A DNA stretch of 64,000 nucleotides from Escherichia coli. Lineage in GTDB: Bacteria; Pseudomonadota; Gammaproteobacteria; Enterobacterales; Enterobacteriaceae. Below are positions 48-862 of this stretch, one piece after another. Numbering within the stretch: the stretch's first letter is position 1; each line of letters starts with the position of its first letter. Position numbers and translations under genes: made by a program. The stretch is taken from the NCBI RefSeq assembly GCF_024502345.1, contig NZ_JALDNN010000001.1; one strand, written 5' to 3'. Below the pieces are notes generated by a model. It saw only the letters and a program-made list of their open reading frames with translations. It had not been told where the DNA came from and ran no database searches.

Positions 48-862
48 ATGACCAAATTCTCAGTGGTTGTCGCAGGCGGTGGAAGCACCTTTACGCCAGG
101 CATCGTGTTGATGCTCCTGGCGAATCAGGACCGTTTCCCGCTTCGTGCACTGAAATTTTATGATAACGATGGTGCGCGGCAGGAAGTGATTGCCGAAGCC
201 TGTAAAGTCATCCTTAAAGAGAAAGCGCCGGACATTGCGTTTAGTTACACCACCGATCCTGAAGTGGCATTCAGCGACGTTGATTTTGTCATGGCGCACA
301 TCCGCGTCGGCAAGTACCCGATGCGCGAACTGGATGAAAAAATCCCACTGCGCCACGGTGTTGTTGGTCAGGAAACTTGCGGACCCGGCGGAATAGCGTA
401 CGGCATGCGTTCCATTGGCGGCGTCCTGGAACTGGTGGATTATATGGAAAAATATTCACCAAATGCCTGGATGCTCAACTACTCCAACCCGGCAGCAATT
501 GTCGCAGAAGCCACGCGTCGTCTGCGCCCGAATGCGAAAATCCTCAACATCTGTGACATGCCAATCGGTATTGAAAGCCGGATGGCGCAAATTGTTGGGC
601 TGCAAGATCGCAAACAGATGCGCGTGCGCTACTACGGCCTGAACCACTGGTGGTCGGCGATATCCCGCAGTTTCAGAAAGGGTTAATGAGTCAGCAAGTG
701 GCGGTGGAAAAACTGGTCGTGGACGCCTGGGAACAGCGTTCATATCAGCACCTGTGGCAGGCGATTACGTTGTCGAAAACGGTACCGAGCGCCTCGGTCG
801 CCAAAGCTATTCTGGATGAGTTGCTGGAGGCCAACAAAGCGTACTGGCCAGAGTTACGTTAA
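48..862 (+). pseudogene. glvG: 6-phospho-alpha-glucosidase (glycoside hydrolase family 4), disrupted: N-terminal ~200 codons joined out of frame to a C-terminal ~70 codons
   Basis: ORF 48..686 has the GH4 N-terminus ([31 protein letters not shown]). ORF 650..862 in another frame matches the GH4 C-terminus (IPQFQKGLM...WPEL). About 160 residues of the family are missing between them. Confidence 0.6.

Follow-up and report, generated by a model that had tools for sequence, protein, structure and literature searches.

Within a 64,000-nt stretch of Escherichia coli DNA (the window), positions 48-862 almost certainly hold the glvG pseudogene allele found in K-12 and many other E. coli, generated from an intact gene through a single 508-bp deletion. 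The ancestral gene is predicted to have encoded a 440-aa, NAD+/Mn2+-dependent GH4 6-phospho-alpha-glucosidase, an orthologue of Klebsiella AglB and Bacillus subtilis GlvA, which would have hydrolyzed alpha-glucoside 6-phosphates brought in by the PTS EIICB encoded upstream. What remains could yield, at most, a 212-aa fragment in which residues 1-200 are followed by a 12-residue nonsense tail. The status of glvG as a pseudogene was already known and nothing found here contradicts it; the analysis pins down the molecular lesion of this textbook K-12 pseudogene as 508 bp lost between 8-bp repeats.

Locus layout and homology of the two surviving pieces

The pseudogene (48-862, + strand, 815 bp, delimited by comparison with MG1655) is preceded by the 3′ end of a PTS EIICB gene (1-48, + strand; glvB in K-12), recognized from the sequence and from the annotation of identical loci. 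The window holds just the last 47 bp of this upstream gene, whose TAA stop codon at 46-48 shares one base with the glvG ATG at 48 (TAATG). A GGAGG motif at 36-40 (+ strand), 7 nt 5′ of the start codon, can be read as a Shine-Dalgarno sequence. The translation signals of the glvG remnant thus appear intact, and they are coupled to the upstream EIICB gene. On the other side, yidL (859-1752, − strand), encoding an AraC-family regulator, is convergent with glvG, with 4 bp of overlap at the glvG 3′ end; as a neighboring gene, it lies outside the lesion.

Two open reading frames (ORFs) in different frames make up the pseudogene. The first (48-686, + strand, stop TAA at 684-686) encodes 212 aa, comprising GH4 residues 1-200 and then 12 out-of-frame residues. 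The second (650-862, + strand, stop TAA at 860-862) encodes 70 aa corresponding to residues 371-440. Its start is a GTG at 650, inside the first ORF, and homology in the C-terminal frame begins already at about 638 (PEPLVV), 5′ of this start. Residues 1-205 of the 212-aa ORF match chain residues 4-210 of Klebsiella AglB (6DUX; E=6e-128), and the same ORF matches B. subtilis GlvA (1U8X) with E=8e-109. The 70-aa ORF matches AglB residues 375-442 (E=6e-35) and GlvA (E=8e-27). The window therefore retains both ends of a GH4 protein, in different frames and without the middle, at a significance far beyond chance, as a preliminary description of this DNA had proposed.

The GH4 N-terminal domain (PF02056) is found on the first ORF with E=4.6e-67 and spans profile positions 2-182 of 183, whereas on the second ORF the GH4 C-terminal domain (PF11975) is represented only by profile positions 168-211 of 211 (Pfam). 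Searches against NCBIfam gave only sub-threshold matches to alpha-galactosidase/AglA models, even with the intact allele, and no equivalog name was assigned. The N-terminal Rossmann NAD+ domain keeps the GGGS dinucleotide-binding motif at residues 10-13, and the N-terminal piece also keeps C169-D170 (CDMP) and H200 (GLNH). By alignment, numbering is offset by +2 relative to GlvA, so that C169, D170 and H200 correspond to GlvA Cys171, Asp172 and His202, which reportedly provide the Mn2+ ligands and the catalytic acid. GlvA Tyr265 is said to be the proposed catalytic base, and we take Tyr263 of the intact E. coli protein to be its equivalent.

The 508-bp deletion and its consequences for the enzyme

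When window positions 1-1000 were used as a megablast query against 5,426 complete E. coli genomes, matches fell into two length classes only: 1000 bp, collinear with the window, and 1508 bp, in which the gene is annotated as '6-phospho-alpha-glucosidase'. The O157:H7 F6321 allele (L001:3048-4370; 440 aa, WP_000160122.1) served as the intact reference. In an ungapped base-by-base comparison, the window lacks exactly 508 bp relative to this allele, following it from the left up to base 648 and on the right from base 641 onward. These two matches share the 8 bp at 641-648 (+ strand), the deletion junction, where the sole surviving copy of GAACCACT stands. The intact gene has two copies of GAACCACT (CCTGAACCACT and CCAGAACCACT), whose starts lie exactly 508 bp apart (repeat family D4). 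The lesion would thus be a single deletion between two 8-bp GAACCACT direct repeats, most likely through replication slippage or microhomology-mediated illegitimate recombination between the two copies.

Since 508 equals 169 x 3 + 1, the deletion removes 169 codons and one further nucleotide, approximately residues 201-369, and therefore shifts the reading frame. The first ORF retains residues 1-200 (ending ...YYGLNH) and differs from the O157 protein at one of these 200 residues (S43A), while the second shows no differences from intact residues 371-440 (0/70). The preliminary description had correctly recognized an internal out-of-frame deletion, but it placed the join around 650-686, a segment that is only the overlap of the out-of-frame tail with the second ORF; the missing middle it reported is real, its size being 169 codons plus 1 nt rather than the approximately 160 residues claimed. 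Residues 1-439 of the intact O157:H7 protein align with AglB chain residues 4-442 without gaps (E=7e-274), a full-length alignment that the window allele does not give. Because the intact protein is gaplessly collinear with AglB, the intact form is regarded as ancestral and the window allele as derived.

An assembly or sequencing artefact concealing an intact gene has practically no chance of being the explanation and is rejected, as about 2,640 complete genomes, each assembled independently and the MG1655 reference among them, have exactly this junction.

The deletion leaves the Rossmann domain of PF02056 with its GGGS motif in place and, at the sequence level, the Cys-Asp pair and the His of the AglB/GlvA type. 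What is gone is profile positions 1-167 of 211 of PF11975, three quarters of the C-terminal domain, and with it Tyr263, which falls within deleted residues 201-369. In place of one continuous ORF of about 440 aa there are the two short ORFs. Since the 212-aa fragment lacks most of the C-terminal domain, the enzyme is expected to be dead, with the loss of hydrolysis of alpha-glucoside 6-phosphates. Strains carrying the deleted allele are accordingly not expected to use alpha-glucosides via the glv pathway, whereas BL21 and O157:H7 keep the intact gene.

It could be argued that programmed frameshifting joins the two ORFs, or that together they form a split two-subunit enzyme with activity retained, given that both pieces are intact-like in sequence and that the start codon and Shine-Dalgarno sequence are preserved. 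Such an arrangement is extremely improbable. Frameshifting or recoding cannot restore the enzyme because the deleted DNA, covering 169 codons and PF11975 positions 1-167 of 211, is physically absent, and both forms of the proposal are rejected on this ground. In addition, the second ORF has only an internal GTG start and encodes just the last 70 residues, and some deleted alleles have private nonsense, missense or start-codon changes, one of these alleles carrying an 'internal stop' annotation. For annotation, the interval should accordingly be treated as one pseudogene and not as two small genes.

Frequency and origin of the deleted allele

The deleted allele was counted with an 81-mer over the junction (window 605-685), a genome being scored when the 81-mer matched at >=99%, and nearly all such matches were in one piece. 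By this measure 2,638 of the 5,426 complete genomes carry the deleted allele. In about 1,636 of the 5,426 the 81-mer matched only as two pieces approximately 508 bp apart, marking the intact allele, and 481 bp from within the deleted segment were found in 1,653 of 5,426. A further group of about 1,150 of 5,426, in which only the yidL 3′ end matches, lacks the locus. These approximate figures were derived from identity bands; they correspond to about 49% deleted, 30% intact and 21% absent, with the deleted allele in about 62% of the genomes that keep the locus. This three-way polymorphism illustrates, on a modest scale, how E. coli continues to lose genes. An exact 24-mer from the junction had no matches in 100,044 species-representative genomes (one genome per species, including the E. 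coli representative), a result weakly consistent with a deletion event internal to E. coli.

The history of the deletion was approached by comparing 11 deleted and 8 intact alleles over their shared 935 bp. On the 5′ side (sites 131-497), the deleted alleles represent at least four haplotypes, each of which is also found with intact alleles, and all 5′ polymorphisms common to deleted and intact alleles are at third codon positions. On the 3′ side (503-862), the 11 deleted alleles are invariant except for a private nonsense change in strain d1-58, while the intact alleles vary there. Other private changes in deleted alleles are a start-codon change from ATG to GTG (Ec-050) and a second-position change (D72), and together these private changes hint at relaxed constraint.

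The presence of at least four 5′ haplotypes among deleted alleles calls for recombination or for a deletion that recurred at this one microhomology. Independent origins by slippage at GAACCACT would account for the 5′ haplotypes that deleted alleles have in common with intact ones, and a microhomology-mediated event yields an identical junction every time. Even so, recurrence is unlikely: about 20 short direct repeats equal to or better than GAACCACT, including exact 10-mers, lie in the intact gene, yet a single deletion class is seen, with matches of only 1000 bp and 1508 bp. All 11 sampled deleted alleles, a small sample, also have one 3′ haplotype in the region where intact alleles vary. 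The single junction, the near-invariant 3′ side and the single deletion class instead favor one old deletion, whose upstream flank was probably shuffled later by homologous recombination.

The frequency of about 49%, the several 5′ haplotypes and the invariant junction-proximal 3′ side also allow a reading in which the allele is not a neutral relic, either because positive selection favored losing glvG and recombination spread the loss or because the 212-aa fragment is functional. There is a slim chance that this is so; under selection, loss of glvG might, for example, avoid a cost of the alpha-glucoside PTS pathway. The more specific proposal that the N-terminal Rossmann fragment is expressed with a residual or new role, for example NAD+ binding or a regulatory effect, is very unlikely. 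In its favor, the remnant keeps intact translation signals with coupling to the upstream gene, only one amino acid differs from the intact protein over 200 residues, and one screen recorded a mild Congo-red phenotype for a Keio glvG deletion mutant (PMC5745457). That phenotype is weak and uncomplemented, however, and could be polar or arise from a neighboring gene. The SNPs among deleted alleles are mostly common to intact alleles, so the synonymous pattern may be merely inherited, private start-codon and missense changes exist among the deleted alleles, and no direct sign of the protein came to light.

The glv locus in K-12 and related systems

Decay at this locus extends beyond glvG. Most of the deleted-allele strains sampled still have an upstream EIICB gene annotated as intact, but in K-12 this gene is split into glvC and glvB, which indicates that the pathway is decaying piecemeal. 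In some strains with an intact glvG (L008 and L010; E. coli PSS-12 and FDAARGOS_1248), EIICB is annotated with an internal stop and yidL is truncated, and at L010 the truncated yidL adjoins an IS200/IS605 transposase pseudogene. The occurrence of these lesions alongside an intact glvG suggests that different lesions inactivate the glv operon in different lineages. Strain 1332KP carries an element annotated as a TnpB-family gene inside glvG.

Elsewhere in the window, several segments depart from the K-12 sequence. An 8.7-kb islet without a K-12 counterpart (27101-35847) is inserted at the tRNA-Sec gene selC (35863-35957) and contains a P4-type integrase gene (34053-35267, − strand), a 5′-nucleotidase family gene (33039-34004), an IS5-family DDE transposase gene (31805-32785), and DUF932, DUF4942 and RhuM-family genes. 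Relative to K-12, setC is interrupted by a 1.2-kb IS30-like element at 24565-25784 that encodes a 383-aa HTH_38 + rve transposase. About 2.7 kb at 54480-57210 stand in place of the K-12 dinD region and carry a second P4-type tyrosine integrase gene (55762-57057, − strand) and a 226-aa ORF (54859-55539, − strand). Between gltS and recG (44720-45576), where K-12 has only about 173 bp, lies a 288-aa ORF (44722-45588, + strand) with no Pfam match. Finally, in the tisB/istR-emrD intergenic area, about 171 bp (8288-8458) take the place of 32 bp in K-12.

As regards glvG itself, the preliminary suggestion that the lesion fits the K-12 pseudogene holds. In the MG1655 RefSeq record, the corresponding 815-bp interval (3861173-3861987, b4556, formerly b3681), situated between glvB and yidL, carries the annotation pseudogene glvG, and the 815-bp extent, the 508-bp junction, the two-frame structure and the neighboring genes glvB and yidL are all common to MG1655 and the window. 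As in K-12, the allele lies 3′ of a glv PTS gene and is convergent with yidL. Ungapped comparison across glvG reveals SNPs only and no indels, the five SNPs (221, 314, 347, 359 and 497) all being at third codon positions. The five SNPs indicate that the window derives from a strain other than MG1655 carrying the same allele. Among the complete genomes sampled, that of strain 503025 comes closest, with 1 mismatch in 1 kb. In other genomes, PGAP labels this allele 'frameshifted', under the name of either a family 4 glycosyl hydrolase or a hypothetical protein.

The intact E. coli enzyme (WP_000160122.1 in O157:H7 and WP_000160104.1 in BL21) is encoded at the same locus, with flanking DNA 98-99% identical, and unlike the window allele it has the additional 508 bp and a single 440-aa ORF. 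In earlier work, the K-12 homologues of aglA and aglB were described as cryptic or truncated (PMC5309279). GlvA is a well-characterized GH4 enzyme that needs a 6-phospho substrate, and its assays are supplemented with Mn2+ and NAD+ (PMC10628242). Klebsiella pneumoniae AglB (6DUX/6DVV) and B. subtilis GlvA (1U8X) are very close homologues of both window pieces; in contrast to them, the window allele has no equivalent of approximately AglB residues 204-372 and is frameshifted, and is thus not a functional member of the AglB/GlvA enzymes.
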